This document shows positions 20,290 through 31,002 of a DNA stretch of 64,000 nucleotides, one piece after another (the first letter of the stretch is position 1; each line of letters starts with the position of its first letter). This stretch comes from an uncultured delta proteobacterium (GTDB lineage Bacteria; Desulfobacterota; Desulfomonilia; Desulfomonilales; Desulfomonilaceae): NCBI GenBank assembly GCA_963789265.1, contig CAWBKB010000001.1:2464001-2528000 (forward strand). Reading direction: 5' to 3'. The notes below the pieces were generated by a model. That model was not told the DNA's origin. It searched no databases and saw only the letters and a program-made list of their open reading frames with translations. Position numbers and translations under genes: made by a program.

Positions 20290-23200
20290 TCACAGCCTCG
20301 CCAGCGCCTCCTGCGCCTTACCCAGCCAGTAGTCCATTCCCATATCCCGGAACATGCCTTCGGCCTTTTTCAGGTTGTGAAGGGCCTCTTCTCTTCGGCC
20401 CGCCTCAGCGTAGGCCTCTCCGAGATACAGATAGCCCCCACTAGAATAATATGGGAGTCGCAGTTGGTCAGCCAGGCTTATCCCTTGCAACATGAGCTGT
20501 TCCGCAGCCTCAATTTGGCTTGGTTCGGTTTTGGCAACTACCTTCCCGAGCCAAACCTTCGCGAGCGACTGAACGTGTCTCTCGTTGTTTTCCAGAGAGA
20601 ATTGAAGAGCCAACTCTGCATGCGATCGTGCTTCCTCAATGTCGCCGTGTTCGAAATGTGCATGGCTGCAGAAATAGTGGCACGCTCCTTTCCAAAAAGG
20701 CAAGCCAAGATCAGTGTGCATTTCAAGCCCTTTCTTGGTCAGATCGACGGCAGTCTTGGACTGCCCCATCAAGCTGTGCGCCCATCCCAGCCAAGCCCAT
20801 GTAGCGCCCAGTACATATGCTGTTTGGGATTCTTCCATGTATCTGATAGCATCCTGAAGATGAGCTGCTGCCCTTTGCCCGTCTCCCTTCATTGCAAGCA
20901 CACATCCGTAAACAAGTTCTACTTGCCCTAGAGTACTCAGATGATCCATTTCGAGGGCGAAAGACAGGGCTTGCTCAAGCAGCCTCTCGCCTTGACAGAA
21001 ATCCCCACACACTCCGGTACTTGTGCCCCACAGCGCGCGAACATACGAATAGGGGTTAAAAGGTAGACCAAATAATTCTGCTTGCATACTGGAGGTCTCA
21101 ATCAGGCTGATGATGCCAGGAGCAACACTGATTATTCTGTAGTAATCTCCCGAAGCTATGCAAGACGAGCACAGGTTAACCCCTAGGGTGACCATGAGTT
21201 CAACATCCTGTATCAAATCAGGATTTCCTAAACAGCTCTCCATATAATTCCATCCGAGTTCGGGATTGCCGCCCCCAAAAATATAATAAACACCCAAAAT
21301 ACTGCGTACATGCAGTAACTTCTTGTCATCCCCAAGCTCTTGAGCCAACGCCTCCGCGTCTTGAAGCATTGGAAGATAATCATCCTGAGACCAGCCTAGC
21401 CTTCTCACTGGCACATTCATCCCCAGAACCAGATCTATCTGCTCTCTCTTATTCTCTTCTTTTGGGGGCAATAGCGAGAGGACCTCCATCCCTTCCTTGT
21501 AAAACCGGACGGCTTCGAACGTTGCGTCATTTCGCACAGCCTTCTCCGCTGACCCCTTCAGGTACAAATATGCCTTCTCCAGATTCCCGCTCTTCGAATA
21601 ATGATAGGCCAACATCTCGCAGAATTCTTCCAGCCGCTGCGGATAGAGCTTTTCAATGGCCCTGCCGATCTTCTCGTGGATCTCCTTTCTCCGGTTGATA
21701 AGCAGGCTGTTGTAAGCGACCTCTTGAACCAGTGCGTGCCTAAATATGTACTCAAGGTCAGGGAAGAGGCTCTTCTCGTAGATGAATTCCAGCCCTTGCA
21801 GGTTCACCAGTCCTGATTTCAGTTCCTCTTTCATCTCCGTGATCGTTTCGAGGATACGAAAGGCAAATTCTCGCCCTATCACAGCGGCCACTTGCATGAT
21901 TCGCTTGAGACTTTCTTCCAAACGGTCCATGCGAGCCGCAATGATCCCCTGAATGGTATCCGGAACTTGCACGCTGGAAATATCCCTCGTCAGGATAAAC
22001 TGATGATTCTTTTTCTGGATGGACCCATTCTGGAGTAGGCTATGGGTAAGCTCCTCCATGAAAAGCGGGTTACCTGCTGCCCGGTTGAGTATCAGTTCCC
22101 TCAGCTCGGGGACCACGTCTCCGCCCTCAAGGATTGCTGCGACGAGTTCCGTGCTTGTGCTCGTGGAGAGATGTCCCACGCCAATCATGCTGTAATAGGA
22201 CTTGCTCCCCCACTGATGGGTATATTCGGGGCGGTAGAGAAAAAGCAGGAGAATGCGGGTCTTTGGCAGCCAGCCGATCATGTAGTTGAGGAACTCTTCG
22301 GTGGTCTTGTCTATCCAGTGGAGGTCTTCAACGACCAGAACAAGCAACCGATCCTGGCTGCCCCGAATCAGCAGGTCCCGGATGGCTTCAAAGGTTTTTT
22401 CCCTCTTCTGTTTTGGCTCCAGCTTGGCGAAGGCTTCATCATCGACCTTCAGAGACAACAGTTCCTGGTATGGTGCAATGACGTGTAGAAGGCTCTCGTC
22501 AAGCCCAAGGATTCTCTCTTTCAGCTTCTGCCTGATTACGTGCTCTTGCTCCCCTTCTTTGACTCCGATGAAAGACCTCGTAATGTCGAGTATGGGCAAA
22601 TAGGGCATAGAGCCACCATAATGAAGACATCGCCCCTCATAATACCAGTGCTCACCCTTTGGAAGAGTGTTTCGGAACTCCAGTAGCAGCCTCGACTTGC
22701 CTACCCCAGCTTCGCCCACGATGCCCACTACCTGGCCTTCTCCTGATTGAACCTTGTCGAACGCTGCTTTCAGCGTATCGATCTCATGGGTGCGGCCCAC
22801 AAATCGGGTAAGACCCTTGGCGGCAGAAGCAGCAATTCTCGTTTCAACCTCTGTGGGCTTTATGAGTCGGTATGCCTCGACAGGCTCCTCTTTTCCCTTC
22901 ACATGAATCTCACCAATGGGATCGAACTCGAAGAACTCTTTGGCCTGTCTGTATATGTGGTTTGATACCAGCACACTGCCGGGCTGGGCGCTGCTTTCCA
23001 TGCGAGAAGCTAAGTTTGCCGTATCTCCTTGGGCTGTATAGTCCATCCGCAGGTCATCACCGATGGAGCCGACCACCACAGGGCCGGAGTTGAGGCCGAT
23101 ACGCATCTTGAAATCAATTCCATAACGGTTCTTTAAGGTCTCGCTGTACGGTATCAGGACCTGCTGAATAGCCAGAACCGGCATGGCAGGCTCTCTGTGC

Positions 23201-23663
23201 ATGGTCCTCGTGCGCGATGGGCGCGCCGAAAAGAGCCATCACCCCGTCACCGCGGAACTGATTGATTGTCCCCTCGTACCTGTGGATCTCGTCCATCAGG
23301 AGGCGGAAACACCCGTCCATGATCTCATGAACTGACTCAGGGTCGAGGGTTTCAAACATGCACGTTGAATTGGCCACGTCCGCGAAGAGGATCGTGACCA
23401 GCTTGCGTTCCCCCTCAATAGAGCTGCGCGTGGTGAGGATCTTTTCCGCAAGATGCTTGGGGGTGTATGAATGAGGCTGGTCGTAATCCAGAGGCTTGGC
23501 CTCTTTCGGCTTGCGGAGGTCGTGGCCGCAGTCACCGCAGAAAGTATCTTCCGGAAGAATTTCGGAGGCGCATTGCGGGCAGGTAAGTGCGAGTTTCCCT
23601 CGACACTTTCTGCAGAAACTTCTTGCTCTCAGGATTTTCCGTCTGGCACTTTGGGCATTTCAT
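20290..23663 (-). CDS. Double zinc ribbon-class III nucleotide cyclase-AAA ATPase-TPR protein; frameshifts near 23616 and 23177
   Basis: MKCPKC..FCRKC..CPQC..FCGDCG; VTILFADVANS, GDGVMALFG, GDTANLASR; GEAGVGKSRL; VEDLHWID; helical repeats. Confidence 0.88.
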
Positions 23664-23951: not shown

Positions 23952-24245
23952 CTATGGGAGCTTACCAATCATTCCCACAAGCTGTTCTTTAGTGAAAGCA
24001 CGCATCGTGGTAGTCCTGACGCTTCCCCCTGCGCCTAATCCCAGCATGAAGGTTGCAGCGACCTCGTCACTCGGAGCCTCCGCAATGCCAATGTAGTCAT
24101 ACTCCCCCATCACGAGGTAGAATGCGATCAATTTGCCCCCCATAGCTTCAAGGGCCTTTACCGCCTCTTCAAGGCGCTTGGGTGCGTCTTTGATGTTTTT
24201 GATTCCTTGCTCCGTCAAGTTCATCACACTGATGTAAGTTGGCAT
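23952..24245 (-). CDS. GYD domain-containing protein (second paralog)
   Basis: 97 aa; FYLVMGEYD..AEAPSDE.AA; aligns without gaps to 19608-19901. Confidence 0.85.
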   Translation of the reverse strand: MPTYISVMNLTEQGIKNIKDAPKRLEEAVKALEAMGGKLIAFYLVMGEYDYIGIAEAPSDEVAATFMLGLGAGGSVRTTTMRAFTKEQLVGMIGKLP

Positions 24246-24278
24246 GACTCTCCCCCCTTTCCGATTTGCCGTCCAGTC

Positions 24279-24544
24279 AGTGTGCCACCAAATTGAAAGC
24301 GAATCTCATTCTTAAGGATACGGAAGCACGCAGCCACGTTTTGGTGAATCTGCTCGGGATCGAGCTTCTTGGTCATGGACGTGTAGCCGGTGAGGTCTGA
24401 AAATACGGCTGTGACGTGTTTGCGTTCCGGCTCGGGTGTTAGATGGGGCTTCGCTTCAGGCGGGGCTGACTTCAGTGCTTGGCCGCATTTGTGACAGAAG
24501 TTCGCTCCATCGGGAAGCTCAGTTTGACATGCGGGGCACTCCAT
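24279..24544 (-). pseudogene. N-terminal fragment of a zinc-ribbon/cyclase gene
   Basis: MECPAC..FCHKCG, ERKHVTAVFSDLTGYT..LDPE, then loses similarity before GDG. Confidence 0.8.
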
Positions 24545-26318
24545 GGTTTCCCCTCCTTGGCCGCCATAGACTCATCGCTAAGACAGCCTTGCCAACTCCT
24601 CTTCAGCCCTCGTCACCCAGCCGTCTGCGCCGCATTCCCTGTAGATGTCTATGGCTTTGCCCAGTTGCTCTCTGGCTTTTTCTCTGTCGCCTTTTCGTTT
24701 GAATAGTTCAGCGTAAACGGCATAGTCCCTACCCAAGCTGAACATCGTTTGGTTTCGTTTGTCCGCTTCGATGGCCTCATCGATCCAATGCTGAGCTTCT
24801 GGGATTTGCTGATTACCGAGAATCAAAAGGATTTCGGCGAGGTACCTGCGCATCCAGCCTTCCTGCGCCTTGATCTTATTATCTCGGACATAGCGATGGA
24901 GCCCTTCCAGTTCAACACTTTTCTCCCCACTCAAGGCTTGTGCCTTTTCCAAAGCCATCCTGCTCAAGTTCGACATAGAAGGGAGCAATCTCACGGAGTC
25001 AAGAAGCTCAGTGGCGTCTCGACAGCAAATCTTGGCAACTTCGTATTCCCCGATCTCAAGGCAAGTTTCTGCGAGAGCAAACCACGCCAAGGTACCAAAA
25101 AAATTGGATTGCACCTTTTACCAAGATCTACAGCCTTTGAAAGGTGGTCTCTTGCTTCTTCGAGATAGCCTCCACCATAACAGGAATAACCATGAATGCT
25201 GTGTCCTATTGATCGTGAGTATATGTCGCCGCTCTGCTCAGCTAGCCTCAATGCCTCACCACTGGTTTGATAGCTTAGTTCAACTTGCCCATGCAATAAT
25301 TGGAAATAGCTGTGGGTGCTCTTGATGGCTGATACACCCCAGAGGTTGTTTGCTGCCATGTTGATCTCGATTGCTTTCTCAACAAGGGATAATGCCTCTT
25401 CGAATTGGCAATGAGAAGCTAACACAACTGCCAGGTAATAGCTTGCGAGGACAGCGGAAAGCATGTCGCCCGTTTGTTCGGCAAGCTCCAGAGCACGCGT
25501 GAGATGTTCGAGAGCTCTGGGAAAATCCTCTTCAACGGAGTAATCGAAGGCTCCTATAACTGTGTAAATCTGAGCTAGTCGCCTGTTGTAACCCCTTTGT
25601 GCTGCCGACTCCATTATCGGATCTATTATCTCTTTAGCTTTGCAAAAATAGTTCATTTGCGTCAGATAAAGGCCCAAAACCGTTCTGGCATCTATGATCT
25701 TTATCTGCACTTCTTCACTGGCTGGTAACCGCTCCAGACAAGCTATGCCTTTCTCCGCGTACAGGATCGCATCACTGAGTGAAGCTGTCTTCTCTGCCTT
25801 CTTGCTGGCGAGTCTGCCATACCGGGCACCTTTCTCATGCGCGTCACCGGCAAGAAAATGCTCTACTAGGGCTCCGTAATGATCGGTTAGAATGTCCCTG
25901 TAACTGTTCTCAATGATGTTGCCGATCTTCTGGTGAAGCAGCTTACGTCGTTTCGTCAATATCGAGTCGTAGACCACCTCTCGGGTGAGTGCATGTCTGA
26001 ACACGTATGTGGATTGCGGGAAGATCCCTCGTTCGTAGAGAAGCTCCGCATCCTTGAGAACAGAGACATGGTAAAGCAATTCTTGCTCCGGCAATTCTGT
26101 CACTCCCTTGATCAGCTCATAATTGAATTCCCTCTCTATTGCCGAGCAAGTGTAGGATTTCGAATTGAATGGACAGAAAAGGGGTGAAATTTTCAGAATA
26201 GGTTGACCTGGCAGGGGAAAATATCAGAATAGATGGACGGAATGAAGAGGGCGGTGGCTTGACGGAGCTACCGCCCGAAACATGTACGGGCCGTAAGGCC
26301 CTACAAAAGGATGTTCTG

Positions 26319-26765
26319 ATGATATTCCCTGTTCTTGTTTCCATCAAGGAGATAGTTGCGAGGGGGCGGGATTTTCCTTGGCCGAGACCGGAGGCGTGCC
26401 CTCGGTGTGAGGGGCGTCGGGTCTGGTATCATGGCTTTGTCCCTGCCTTTTTTGACGGTTTTTCTGAACAGCTCTTTTTGCGACGGTATCGCTGCCCGGA
26501 GTGCAGGTGCGTGATGAGGGCGCGACCATCGGGCTATTTCAAACGGGTACAAGCGTCTATCGAGACGGTCCGTTCGTCCATCGCTTTCAGGCTGGAGCAT
26601 GGGAGATGGCCCGCAGGCATTTCACGGTCTCGGCAGGGCCATTGGCTGAGGTCTCTTACACGGAGAGTGTGTGCCCGGTTTGGGCAGGAATGGAGCAAAC
26701 GCCTGCTGGAGGGATTCGATGAGCTGATACTCAAAAATGAGAACCCGGTTTCCCGTCGCATCTAA
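26319..26765 (+). CDS. Small basic Zn-finger protein of the transposon (DUF6431-like)
   Basis: CPRC..WYHGF..RRYRCPEC; AAGGA RBS before ATG 26319. Confidence 0.75.
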   Translation: MIFPVLVSIKEIVARGRDFPWPRPEACPRCEGRRVWYHGFVPAFFDGFSEQLFLRRYRCPECRCVMRARPSGYFKRVQASIETVRSSIAFRLEHGRWPAGISRSRQGHWLRSLTRRVCARFGQEWSKRLLEGFDELILKNENPVSRRI

Positions 26766-26869
26766 TCTGCACTGTCCATCGACGCTCACACACCCTACCG
26801 AAGAGTGTCGTTGTCCTGGGATTGTCTTGGGAGTACCACCCCAGACAACATACCCAAGGAGGCAGATCG

Positions 26870-28171
26870 ATGGAGGAAGATAAGAAAAAGCAGATTGCAA
26901 CGTTTCGGTTCGGGGTGATTCATGACCTCGTAGGACATGCGGCGCTCGAACCTGGCGAGCAGGAGAGGCTCATAAGGGACAAGTGCGACCGAAAATGGGT
27001 GATTCCATTCTCGGACAAGACCCGTATTACCCGGAGCACTATCCTGCGCTGGGTGAAGCTCTACAAAGACTCTGGCGGCAAACTGGAGGCGCTGGCTAAC
27101 CATGATAGATCAGATCATGGGAAGAGCCGCGCCATAGATGAAGAGACCGGTTTGGCTTTGATCCGTTTGAGGGCGGAGCTTTCCAAGGCAACGGTCGCCC
27201 GGCTGATCCGTGAGATGAACAAGAGACGACTGGTATCGCCTGGCATCACTCTCACCGCTACAACGGTACACCGCTTCCTGAGAACCAATGGTCTGATGAA
27301 GGGAGATGAGGCCAGGCTCGAAGATCGACGGAAATTCGAAGCTGAGTTACCGAACGATCTGTGGCAGTCCGACTGCATGCATGGCCCGAGCGTGGAGCAC
27401 GAGGGGAAGAAGAGGAAAACCTATCTCCTTGCATTCATCGACGATCACTCTCGCCTGGTTCCTCATGCCGAGTTTTATCTCACCGAGTCGCTTCCATCGT
27501 ATTTGAAAGCCCTTGAGGAAGCCCTCTTGACCAGAGGACTCCCCAGGAAAATCTATACCGACAATGGGAGCGCCTTTCGTTCCCATCACCTGGAGCATGT
27601 CACCGCGAGCCTCGGGATCGCCCTTATCCATGCACGGCCGTACAAGCCACAAGGCAAAGGGAAAATCGAGCGGTTCTTCCGCACAGTGAGGGGCGATTTT
27701 CTGTCCGGCTTCAAAGGCACTACGCTTGCCGATCTGAATCAAGCCCTCTTCTTCTGGCTGGGTGACATCTACCACCAGCGGGTACATTCTTCCACCGGCC
27801 AGACTCCCTTTGCCCGGTTTACGTCACGTATGGAATGCCTGAGAGAAACTCCCCGCAATCTCAGGGACTATTTTCGCAAGACCGTGCGACGAAGAGTAGC
27901 AAAAGACAGGACCATAAGCTTGGACGGAAGGATCTTTGAAGCGCCTGTCCCCCTCATAGGCAAACAAGTCGCCCTTCTATATCACGAACAAGAGCCGGAT
28001 CAGGTCGAGATCATGCTCGGCGGAGTCTCTTTCGGCATGGCTGCCCCAGTAAATATCCACGTCAATAGCCGGGTGAAACGGGACAAGTGGCGAAATATAG
28101 AGCTTCAATCCTCCGAGGAGGCAGAAAAATACCAAGGTGGAAGTCTTTGGGGAAAGAAGGACCGTACATGA
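26870..28171 (+). CDS. DDE transposase (rve core, Mu-transposase-like C-terminus)
   Basis: LWQSDCMHG, FIDDHSR, YTDNGSAF, PQGKGKIERFFRT, HSSTGQTP, RRRVAKDRTISLDG; AAGGAGG RBS. Confidence 0.95.
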   Translation: MEEDKKKQIATFRFGVIHDLVGHAALEPGEQERLIRDKCDRKWVIPFSDKTRITRSTILRWVKLYKDSGGKLEALANHDRSDHGKSRAIDEETGLALIRLRAELSKATVARLIREMNKRRLVSPGITLTATTVHRFLRTNGLMKGDEARLEDRRKFEAELPNDLWQSDCMHGPSVEHEGKKRKTYLLAFIDDHSRLVPHAEFYLTESLPSYLKALEEALLTRGLPRKIYTDNGSAFRSHHLEHVTASLGIALIHARPYKPQGKGKIERFFRTVRGDFLSGFKGTTLADLNQALFFWLGDIYHQRVHSSTGQTPFARFTSRMECLRETPRNLRDYFRKTVRRRVAKDRTISLDGRIFEAPVPLIGKQVALLYHEQEPDQVEIMLGGVSFGMAAPVNIHVNSRVKRDKWRNIELQSSEEAEKYQGGSLWGKKDRT

Positions 28172-28977
28172 GCACCAACTATCGATCTTTCTTCGGCATG
28201 AGCCGGGAGGCGTTCCCCACCGACATAAACATCAAGGACATTCTGGAAACCCAAGACATTGCAGCAATCAAAGAGCGCTTTGACTATACGGTCAGGTTGG
28301 GAGCTATTGCGACCCTCACCGGCGAGGTGGGATCGGGAAAGTCCACGGCTCTCAGGTACGTCATCTCAAAGCTCCACCCATCCGAATACAAGACCGTGTG
28401 GATCACTGCCTGCTCAGGCTCCATTCTGGAGTTTTATCGGCTCTTCCTCGCTGAATTCGGTATTCACATGGCGGGATCACAGAAAGCCATCATGGTGCGC
28501 CTTATCAAGAAGGCAGTACGGGAAGTGATCCTGGAAAAGAAGATGAAGATCGTGCTGGTGGTCGATGAGGCATCGTTGATGCGTCTGGAGGTCTTTGCCG
28601 AGATCCACACCATCACCGTCTTCGAGGCTGACTCAAAACCGTGGTTGCCTATTGTCCTGACCGGGCGGAGCAACCTCATCGACAAGCTCATGTATCAAAC
28701 CTCCGCTCCGCTCGCGTCACGAATCGTCGCACGCAGCCATATGGAGCCGGTCAGCAGGCAGGAGATGGAACAGTACCTCTCTCACCATCTCTCTCTCACA
28801 GGCGTCAAATCCAGCCTCTTTGACGACGCTGCGATCACCGCAATCCATCAAGGCTCAGGAGGAACATTCAGGAAGGCTAACCATCTGGCAAGAGGCGCTC
28901 TCGTCGCAGCGGCAAACAACCAATCCACCATCGTCACCGCAGATCACGTCAGACTCGCAGCTACCGAAATCTTTTGA
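28168..28977 (+). CDS. ExeA-like AAA+ ATPase (transposition helper)
   Basis: Walker A GEVGSGKST, Walker B LVVDEA, LASRI, IHQGSGG..R..N; ATGA overlap with transposase stop. Confidence 0.9.
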   Translation: MSTNYRSFFGMSREAFPTDINIKDILETQDIAAIKERFDYTVRLGAIATLTGEVGSGKSTALRYVISKLHPSEYKTVWITACSGSILEFYRLFLAEFGIHMAGSQKAIMVRLIKKAVREVILEKKMKIVLVVDEASLMRLEVFAEIHTITVFEADSKPWLPIVLTGRSNLIDKLMYQTSAPLASRIVARSHMEPVSRQEMEQYLSHHLSLTGVKSSLFDDAAITAIHQGSGGTFRKANHLARGALVAAANNQSTIVTADHVRLAATEIF

Positions 28978-31002
28978 ACAACCTATCACCGGGCCGGACC
29001 ACCCGGCCCAGTCAAAACAATCTGAAAAACTAGGCGCTCTGTCCCAAATAATCAGAAAAAATCAGTCAATTTAATGTGAAAAACAACAGCGCAAGCCTGA
29101 AGCACCTCCTTCGCAGCATCGGGCAACGAATCTACCCTAGCCATGATCACGTCCTGGATCGTGGAAGGAATGGCCACCCGATCCACATCTTTGGGCAAAT
29201 GGTACGTATAGTTTGTTAGCTCTATAATGCCCATGTCTCTAAGTGACCGCACAAACTCCTCAATGAAGAAAGGCACTCCCTCAGTCTTTTCAAGGATTAG
29301 ATCCTGCAGGTCAGGCGCTATGTTGTCGCTGCCCAGTAAGTCGGCCATCATGGCCAGACTTTCGTGATTAGCAAGGCGATTTAAAGTGACCTGGCTGTGA
29401 AAGGATTTGCCCCCCCACGTGTGAACGAATTCGGGCCGATATGTGAATATCATCAGCACCCGAGCGCCTGGGATACTCTCCATAAGGTACTTGGCCGCGT
29501 CTTCCGAACTCTTATCCATCCAGTGCAGGTCTTCAAAAGCGAATACCAGCGGCCTGCCTTCTGAGCCCTTCAGGATTATGCGTTGCAGCGCCCTTTGAAT
29601 CCTGTCTTTCCTCGCCTCGGGGCTCATTAAAATCTTATCAATACCACTGTCTTTCACGGATAAAAGTTCAAGCAGATATGGCAAGGTGGAAGCTTCATCG
29701 ACTCCCAGTATTGTAAGTCCTCTCTTAACTTTGACCGTGACATCCGAATCTGAGGCGCCATCATCCACCCCGAAGTTCGACTTCAGCACGTCAATGATCG
29801 GATGATAGGCGGTCCCTCGGCCATAAGAGATGCATTTCCCTTCCAGAAACAGGATGTCTTCGTTGGCTATAGCCTTCCTGAACTCATACAAAAGCCGAGA
29901 CTTGCCGACCCCAGCCTCTCCCATGATGGAGACAGCCTGACCTCTGCCTGCCTTGGCTCTCTCAAAGCTGTCGAGTAAGAGTTCGAGTTCTCTTTCCCTT
30001 CCAACGAATTTACTCAGGCCACGCTCAGCACTTACGTCGAACCTGGTCCTTCGGGTGCTCGGTGCAATCACCTGATAGACCCTCATGGGCTTTTCTTTAC
30101 CCTTAATCTGCTTTTCGCCCAAAGCCTCGAACCGGAAGAATCCCTCAGTCAGCTTGAACGTATCCTCTGTGGCATAGGTGGTACCCGGCTCCGCCATTTG
30201 CTCCATCCGGGCCGCCATATTGATGGTGTCGCCGACAGCGGTAAATTGGACTCGAAGATCGTTTCCGACAGTGCCCACGACGACCGGACCAGAGTTGATG
30301 CCTATGCGAACCAACACTGGTGGAATGTTCTTCTCAGTCTTGAGCTTGTCATTAAATCGGGTCAGTTCTCGGTGAATAGCCAAGGAGGATCTGATAGCTC
30401 TCTGGGGTGCATCCTCCAAAGCAATGGGCGCACCGAAAAACGCCAAGACACCGTCGCCCCTTAGTTCGTTTACAGTGCCTTCGTAATCGTGGATCTTGTG
30501 AATGAGCAGCTCGAAGACCTGATCCATGAGGGAGAATGTCTCCTCAGGGCCGAGCTTTTCCGTCAATGGCGTAAAGCCCTTCATGTCCACAAACATGATG
30601 GTCACATGCCGCCGCTCCCCTTCTATCCTGTCTCTTTGAGACAAGATCTTCTCGGTCAGGCCACCGGGAAGATATTTCTGAATCTTGGCAAGCTTTTCAT
30701 CGAAGGAGAGATTTTTCGGCAAAGCGGTGTCGGCAGGGGAGGTTAGATTGTGGCCACACTCACCGCAGAACTTGAATTCTGGAGGATTGGAGGCTTTGCA
30801 GTTTGAGCAAACAGCTTCAAGCTTAGTGCCGCATTCGCCGCAGAATTTTATGCCCGCTGGGTTCTCGAACTGGCATTTCTGGCACTTCATGGCTTCCCCC
30901 GCCATGCAATTGGGAAGAGGATGGCAGAAATTCTAAACTCTGGGGAAACGCAATAAGATGGAATGAATCATGACTATCACTACCCCCTGGTAATCCGATG
31001 TT

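Follow-up and report, generated by a model that had tools for sequence, protein, structure and literature searches.

The report on Cupriavidus metallidurans CH34 introduces Tn6049, in its passage on the element, as a novel 3.5-kb transposon with 12 copies and a GspA-like ATPase (Janssen et al., PMC2864759). The copy on plasmid pHS87a is described as a promiscuous element with TGT at its ends and a repeat of 4 bp (PMC4739549), and a 2018 paper says of the Tn6049 module that it 'could not be categorized' (PMC6210171). Table S5 of a 2012 paper (PMC3414803) lists related elements, including deltaproteobacterial ones from Desulfobacterium and Pelobacter, as Mob protein, TnpA, ATPase, and UF. The 'Mob' column of this table spans three different clusters, and UF is not obligatory, since some members have 'none' or 'not annotated' in its place. 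We analyzed a 64,000-nucleotide (nt) stretch of DNA from an uncultured delta proteobacterium (contig CAWBKB010000001.1, positions 2,464,001 to 2,528,000; hereafter the window), which carries a transposon at 26151..29088 on the plus strand. It encodes a small cysteine-rich protein (ORF1), a transposase, and an ATPase, and it very probably belongs to the Tn6049 type, as a distant member with three genes. The type itself is not new, as the Tn6049 layout has already been named. The new observation is that the spacer between ORF1 and the transposase gene contains a conserved box, 41 nt ahead of a weak −10-like site. An earlier note on this DNA, made from the sequence alone, had considered that the element might fall in an already characterised insertion sequence (IS) subgroup. 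By its layout it does belong to a named type, and we found no family assignment for that type in the literature searched.

The published ends of Tn6049 on pHS87a could be located around the match of the window transposase, and the pHS87a transposase is 100% identical to the CH34 copies. Between short TGT-ended repeats, both elements have the same order of a small protein with cysteines and a helix-turn-helix (HTH) ('Mob prot' in Tn6049), a DDE transposase, and a GspA/ExeA-like ATPase. Both are multicopy with promiscuous targets. The transposases share 27% identity over 427 amino acids (aa; E 6e-37) and the ATPases 24% (HH probability 99%). The target duplication is short in both, 4 bp in Tn6049 and 4 or 5 bp in the clade of the window element, with the window site itself atypical. 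In the Tn6049 spacer of ~110 nt, a similar box is likewise followed by a −10-like hexamer at a distance of 41 nt. The window element is smaller (2.94 kb versus 3.5 kb), and it lacks the fourth small gene (UF), with 111 nt from the ATPase stop to the end. Among distant members of the family, a fourth small ORF (65-90 aa) follows the ATPase in L086, L088, L090, L093, L094, and L201-L205, and it sits between the transposase and the ATPase in L087 and L207, which is a different position in Streptomyces.

In the window element, the spacer is 104 nt long (26766..26869, plus strand) and contains the box (26793-26801), a TT (26811-12), a TA (26834-35), and a ribosome-binding site; it is a putative internal promoter for the transposase and ATPase genes. 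Spacer length is ~103 nt in nearly all close loci. When 38 spacers of the close clade were aligned, four box positions were invariant in all 38, and most other columns were poorly conserved. Counted from the start of the box, 32 of the 38 spacers have TT at +18, 31 have TA at +41, and another five have it at +42; the T at the −7 position is present in just one of 36. Conservation of the box and its fixed spacing are thus shown in the close clade. The spacing of box, TT, and TA and the rare T at −7 suggest a sigma-70-like geometry, in which 17 nt separate the promoter elements, the −10 is crippled, and a further site lies upstream near −50. A programmed frameshift fusion of ORF1 and transposase was ruled out, since the reading phase between the two genes is not conserved (10, 19, and 19 of 48 rows, one of them mis-extracted). 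In L002, a 566-aa transposase of another element, which we take to be IS1634-like, is inserted within the spacer upstream of the conserved box (L002:898-2598).

Before a held-out test was made, inspection by eye had shown the same distance from box to hexamer in Tn6049 and in elements from Geobacillus and Thermobacillus. For this test, 14 distant representatives (31-35% transposase identity) were fetched after the idea had been noted, and they were compared with 300 shuffles. The box scored 6.18 against 4.84 ± 0.47 in the shuffles, none of which reached it. The −10 score peaked at +41 (2.36 against 1.42 ± 0.31; 0 of 300 shuffles at that offset). Members from Bacillota have canonical TAnnnT hexamers at the −10-like site. 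The spacer is likely to be a promoter, judging from its sequence, and whether ORF1 acts there is an even call. Activation by ORF1 at this site is plausible though somewhat doubtful, and repression there is unlikely. Our best reading, to which we give about an even chance, is that ORF1 regulates, probably as an activator, the internal promoter of the transposase-ATPase pair. The earlier note had offered a regulatory partner as one option for ORF1, and this option gains support from the conserved promoter-like spacer. A subclade of four loci (L121, L122, L123, and L126) is a natural test of co-variation between ORF1 and the box: its ORF1 lacks the fourth zinc cysteine, and its spacer motif differs (TAAC...GTTA-like).

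Several observations weigh against a regulatory ORF1 acting at the spacer. The −10 signal of the held-out loci drops to 22 of 300 shuffles when the best of all offsets is permitted. This −10 signal comes from a few loci of Bacillota and Burkholderiales, and neither the actinobacterial loci nor the L121-L126 subclade fits the pattern. The loci are also not independent, since many copies come from two genomes and ~13 loci from Bacillota are near-identical. When 11 divergent representatives were put through an unsupervised search for two motif blocks, the pair of box and −10 was missed, and a different, partly adjacent motif emerged, for which no shuffle comparison was made. In the genome, a relaxed box occurs 373 times, and the box together with TA 13 times, three of which are the elements. 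The spacer site was absent from the list of a consensus promoter scan. For the protein, the fold matches of ORF1 are all weak (best Z 4.2), with Myb/HTH-like and NrdR zinc-ribbon proteins among them. Finally, the ORF1 of Tn6049 matches neither the profile of window ORF1 (E 5.9; HH probability 1.3%) nor DUF6431, and the link between ORF1 and the Tn6049 'Mob prot' was drawn by eye from the same position and the same order of CxxC-H-CxxC and then HTH.

ORF1 is a core gene of the family. All loci were retrieved with the transposase of this family, and the counts refer to its carriers and not to ORF1-less sister families further out. Seventy-two close loci extend 700 nt or more beyond the transposase on its upstream side; ORF1 lies there in 70 of them, and in one more it is displaced behind an inserted element (71/72). 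The other exception has a truncated transposase. The ATPase lies downstream of the transposase in 75 of 76 close loci. The wider set comprised 81 loci, of which 48 remained after truncated, short, and duplicate ones had been removed. ORF1 was found in 47 of these 48, in 37 automatically as an ORF with the cysteine pattern and in 10 by eye, three of which were broken or cut; one locus had none. The ATPase is present in 41 of the 42 wider loci with room for it. These loci include plasmid records from Bacillota, Actinomycetota, and Pseudomonadota at 27-38% transposase identity. Between the window copy and a 79% identical copy in the same genome (copy 3), the ratio of nonsynonymous to synonymous substitution rates is 0.28 for ORF1 and 0.08 and 0.07 for the other two genes. 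ORF1 is thus under purifying selection, and it evolves faster than the other two genes. The earlier note had proposed ORF1 as a possible partner and had named its common lack in related elements as a refutation. Related elements carry it almost without exception, in both the close and the wider loci.

ORF1 (26319..26765, plus strand) is 148 aa from an ATG or 168 aa from an upstream TTG. Its structure was modeled confidently (pLDDT 93) as a zinc ribbon (C27, C30, H38, C59, and C62) with a helical HTH-like C-terminal part, and the protein is related to DUF6431 (PF20020). Window ORF1 itself scores 16 bits with this family, under the Pfam cut-off of 26.6, and weak matches were found in 21 of 57 homologues. 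Distant homologues pass the DUF6431 cut-off and match HTH_23 or HTH_28, and DUF6431 is present in 39-47% of the members among the Atlas neighbours of ORF1. A fold search with ORF1 gave nothing at E 0.001 in the PDB and viral libraries. ORF1 was ruled out as a TnsA-like nuclease or resolvase, since its invariant positions hold no acidic, Ser, or Tyr catalytic residues. A complex prediction for the ATPase with ORF1 scored 0.00 in two runs; no controls were folded, and the result is not used as evidence. The earlier note knew of no characterised role for this protein, and we found no study of its role or of the spacer in the literature searched, which lay outside subscription journals and the 2009 description of Tn6049. 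DUF6431 itself is mentioned once in each of two unrelated papers. Elsewhere in the same genome, a 307-aa frame has a weak DUF6431 match (C7:314421-314630, E 1e-4), and its contig has no match to the family transposase.

The transposase (433 aa; 26870..28171, plus strand) has N-terminal HTH domains and an rve core with the triad D168/D231/E267, which is invariant in 63 transposase sequences. The best NCBIfam model is that of IS481 (NF033577), which it narrowly misses (213.2 bits, cut-off 224), and it is far under the cut-off of the IS21 model (65.7 bits, cut-off 160). A search of its profile against solved structures placed ShCAST TnsB first (E 7e-33) and IS21 IstA next (3e-22). The ATPase (269 aa; 28168..28977, plus strand) is an ExeA/MuB/TnsC-like AAA+ protein (AAA_22) with Walker A at 52-60 and Walker B at D133-E134, and these motifs are invariant across 32 sequences. 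Among solved proteins, MuB is its closest match by sequence; the model of the ATPase (pLDDT 91) resembles Orc1/Cdc6, MuB, and TnsC in fold. IstB models were absent from the Pfam matches of the window ATPase and, in NCBIfam at E 1e-4, from those of all 32 ATPases (0/32), and IstB was not among the fold matches listed. The earlier description of a minimal Mu/Tn7-like module whose ATPase is ExeA-like and not IstB-like is therefore backed by the MuB and TnsC matches. By analogy, the roles of the two proteins are very likely to be those known from IS21, Mu, and Tn7.

With IS21, the window element shares a transposase with an AAA+ helper, overlapping genes, and several direct repeats per end. According to the sections on IS21 in two papers (PMC10122671; PMC11208146), IS21 likewise has no strong target sequence preference and duplicates ~5 bp, and its transposase needs two repeats per end and is activated by the ATPase, which bends target DNA. 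The window element differs from IS21 in its transposase, which is under the IS21 cut-off, in having no IstB match, and in the extra conserved ORF1. With Mu (MuA/MuB), Tn7 and the CRISPR-associated transposons (TnsB/TnsC/TniQ), and Tn5053/Tn402, it shares TGT...ACA ends, multiple end repeats, a TnsB-like transposase, and a MuB/TnsC-like ATPase, which is equally MuB-like and TnsC-like. Unlike these systems, it has no TniQ/TnsD, TnsA, resolvase, phage genes, or attachment site, and its family duplicates 4-5 (up to 7) bp. IS481 elements also have TGT/ACA ends, as stated in the relevant part of PMC11406308, and most members duplicate 6 bp according to that of PMC10045372. The window element adds the ATPase and ORF1 to an IS481-like transposase.

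At its termini, the element has three repeats of 18 bp per end. On the left they are L1 (26158-26175), L2 (26191-26208), and L3 (26222-26239), together spanning 26158..26239 on the plus strand, and on the right R3 (29010-29027), R2 (29041-29058), and R1 (29064-29081), spanning 29010..29081 on the minus strand with the same repeat profile. They are putative transposase binding sites, by analogy with IS21, Mu, and Tn7 (PMC10122671). In a scan of 15 kb with a repeat profile built from the termini of 50 relatives, the six end repeats were six of the seven best matches. Three repeats per end describe the termini better than a single 27-bp inverted repeat. A promoter-like sequence upstream of ORF1, TTGACC-16-CAGAAT (26203..26230, plus strand), overlaps L2 and L3, and by eye TTGAC is present in L2 of most relatives. 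The site is weak on its own, as the consensus promoter scan gave three sites against 1.4 ± 1.1 in shuffles. Further downstream, the ORF1 leader contains an inverted repeat GGGCG...CGCCC (26249..26276, plus strand), which is a candidate operator or RNA hairpin. Three of its five core pairs are invariant in 19 of 19 loci, and the core shows no covariation (covariation term −0.1). In many of the relatives L029-L056, the left-end repeats are followed, ahead of the ORF1 leader, by a terminator-like hairpin with a T run; the window element has no such hairpin. A G+C-rich hairpin without a T run lies right after the ATPase stop (28990-29010), and it is also present in copy 3 and in a right-end remnant of the family.

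These sites bear on a different role for ORF1, in which it would be an accessory of the transposition complex, either structural or inhibitory, that binds, as if to an enhancer, the ends, the leader repeat, or the spacer. IS1 InsA and the enhancer-binding domain of MuA are precedents for proteins that help or block assembly of the complex. The order of zinc ribbon and then HTH is common to the N-terminal modules of IS1, IS1595, and ISL3, and weak matches to Zn_ribbon_InsA were found in four of the 57 ORF1 homologues and to Zn_ribbon_ISL3 and HTH_Tnp_ISL3 in distant ones. Near-universal retention of ORF1 and the second conserved site in the leader also favor such a role. However, the transposase already has HTH domains of its own, and the box lies at a fixed distance from a −10-like hexamer just before the ribosome-binding site, which suits a promoter better than an enhancer. 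We consider an accessory role possible but rather unlikely.

The element is a genuine, recently mobile transposon of ~2.9 kb. A second full-length copy in the same genome is 100% identical and has the same ends (C1:1505723-1502786), and the third copy, with 79% identity, has the same boundaries (C1:1515877-1518818). Since both copies share both boundaries, the ends of the 2938-bp element are fixed independently of the host gene that it splits. The coordinates, the TGT start and ACA end, and the 19 of 27 matching terminal nt given in the earlier note were exact. So was its description of three intact ORFs: the element contains three stop-free ORFs (26319-26765, 26870-28171, and 28168-28977), and the last two overlap through ATGA. 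The G+C content is 53.7% in the element and 51.6% in the flanks. Mobility is indicated by the identical copy, by the 79% copy with its perfect 5-bp duplication, and by multiple copies in two other genomes, which have 11 and 12 near-identical copies at different sites. Older insertions of the same family are a right-end remnant with the 3' part of the ATPase gene (C1:44014-44425) and two short left-end remnants (C1:2412451-2412487 and C8:32767-32825). Copies 2 and 3 (C1:1502786-1518818) are 10 kb apart and divergent, with varied cargo-like genes between them, and both left flanks end in CCTTG. A nearly identical element (L001, 99% in the transposase) is in a bin labelled Acidobacteriota, which could be a recent cross-phylum transfer or a mis-binned 3-kb contig.

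The interrupted host gene encodes a cyclase/AAA/TPR protein on the minus strand. Its 5' half (29089..30905) has a zinc ribbon, a guanylate/adenylate cyclase domain, and AAA_16, and its 3' part (24991..26150) is the TPR region. An intact paralogue aligns with both parts of the gene, through residues 10-442 with one and 438-639 with the other, confirming the split cyclase gene noticed earlier. The host reading frame is regained on removal of 1, 4, or 7 nt, and 7 also gives the residue spacing of the paralogue, the single one that matches. The host gene seems to be broken again, as the TPR tail shifts frame near 25100 (24578-25114 and 24991-26103, minus strand), which may be an indel of the assembly or decay that followed the insertion. 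The cyclase-AAA-TPR gene has tandem paralogues at 20290-23535 and 24224-24544 (minus strand), and their N-terminal parts are frame-shifted or fragmentary.

The flanks at the window site are GAGCAAG on the left (26144..26150) and GCGCAAG on the right (29089..29095), which can be read on the plus strand as a duplication of 7 bp in which one position differs, or as one of 5 bp (GCAAG) with two extra bases. To see what relatives do, we surveyed 80 close loci, 65 of which had both neighbouring genes and room, and 40 of these had TGT...ACA and full flanks. A perfect duplication of 4 bp was found in 14 of the 40 and of 5 bp in eight, and 18 had none; among the 29 loci of more than 8 kb, the numbers were 14, eight, and seven. 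In cross-paired flanks, 27 of 1560 pairs matched by chance, and near-duplications of 6-8 bp were found in none of the 40 close loci. Copy 2 has no duplication (CCTTG / CTGGG), and reconstruction of its empty site gave no gene spanning the junction. The ends of 37 wider loci were assigned automatically, and perfect duplications of 4-7 bp flank 12 of them; the 7-bp length was found in three Bacillota elements. The imperfect 7-bp duplication at the window site is thus atypical for its clade, though 7 bp occurs in the wider family. The flanks reported in the earlier note were correct, and 7 bp as the norm of the clade did not hold.

The 22 target sites with a duplication, many of which come from two genomes, had a maximum information of 0.44 bit, which was equaled in 447 of 1000 shuffles, and thus there is no consensus. 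Three pairs of these sites have an ordinary 12-mer in common. The 22 insertion sites are unrelated, and no specific attachment site was found. The earlier note had suggested target selection as a role for ORF1, which would make it a TniQ-like selector that brings the ATPase to DNA whose structure or other feature it recognises. In its favor, a small zinc-binding protein adjoins TnsB-like and TnsC-like genes here, and the TniQ of type V-K systems is likewise small. Random targets are also compatible with an adaptor, since Tn5469 has one TniQ and is apparently unspecific in the account of PMC11406308. However, none of the 57 close or 10 distant ORF1 proteins matched the TniQ family, and TniQ was not among the 50 ORF1 fold matches listed, none of which is strong. 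Most TniQ proteins have a core of ~300 aa, as given in the relevant part of PMC10293859, versus the 148 aa of ORF1. Moreover, ORF1 lies upstream of the transposase with a promoter-like site of its own and a spacer between, and not at the operon position of the ATPase, and Tn6049 is described as promiscuous in the section on it (PMC4739549). Sequence-specific targeting by ORF1 is not supported, and a selector role is improbable; the regulatory idea now has a specific candidate site in the spacer. It is very improbable that ORF1 is a dispensable passenger of an ordinary two-gene IS481/IS21-like element: the near miss on the IS481 model, the annotation of some relatives as IS481, and the fastest evolution among the three genes would fit, but ORF1 is under purifying selection and is kept in 47 of 48 loci down to ~30% transposase identity in Bacillota, Actinomycetota, Pseudomonadota, and the home phylum.

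The element is best explained as an autonomous IS-sized transposon of the Tn6049 type that was active recently and has three genes, the fourth small one being absent. If ORF1 regulates the internal promoter, the parts could work together as follows. The transposase would bind the three repeats at each end and join the 3' CA ends to target DNA at positions staggered by 4-5 bp, or by up to 7 bp in distant clades. The MuB/TnsC-like ATPase would load onto target DNA with little sequence preference and activate the transposase, and by analogy with IS21 these two proteins may suffice for the chemistry of transposition. ORF1, a predicted DNA-binding protein with a zinc ribbon and an HTH, would be made from a promoter in the left end, which shares sequence with the transposase sites. 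ORF1 would most likely bind the box ~45-53 nt upstream of the start of the weak internal promoter, probably switching on the transposase-ATPase pair. Activation is suggested because the −10 is weak and the site lies upstream, and Mu Mor/C and P2 Ogr are activators that act at upstream sites of promoters. Since no resolvase or TnsA-like gene is among the three genes, cointegrates would be resolved by the host, or circles would be formed. The copies without a duplication (copy 2 and seven of the 29 loci of more than 8 kb) fit later rearrangement, and they do not decide between cointegrate and circle.

In a sample of 401 genomes from the home phylum, 33 carry the family transposase, which was also found on plasmids of four phyla. 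A search centred on genome G201 found it in one of nine genomes, and one centred on G202 repeated the home-phylum sample; neither added anything, and loci L136-L165 were excluded as duplicates. Among viral contigs, two of four distant queries returned no loci. As a single locus, the window element is ordinary, a further copy that inactivates a host cyclase gene. Its type is widespread, yet we found neither a family assignment nor a mechanism for it in the literature searched. Among transposons that combine a TnsB-like transposase and a MuB/TnsC-like ATPase with a third core gene, it is about the smallest, and it offers a simple system for the role of that third gene. Repression is the usual rule in IS-sized elements. 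If ORF1 activates the transposase promoter, DUF6431 would gain a function, and an IS-sized element would regulate itself positively. We tentatively propose, at less than even chances, that the Tn6049 type is a cross-phylum, unclassified Mu/Tn7-like family of IS-sized elements in which a dedicated DUF6431 protein with a zinc ribbon and an HTH binds the conserved box ahead of a deliberately weak internal promoter and activates the transposase-ATPase pair, and the transposase is seated on the ORF1 promoter in the left end. If true, this would be a phage-like two-step cascade within a 3-kb element, in which the activator switches on transposition genes and the transposase feeds back to switch the activator off, and it would give a function to DUF6431.

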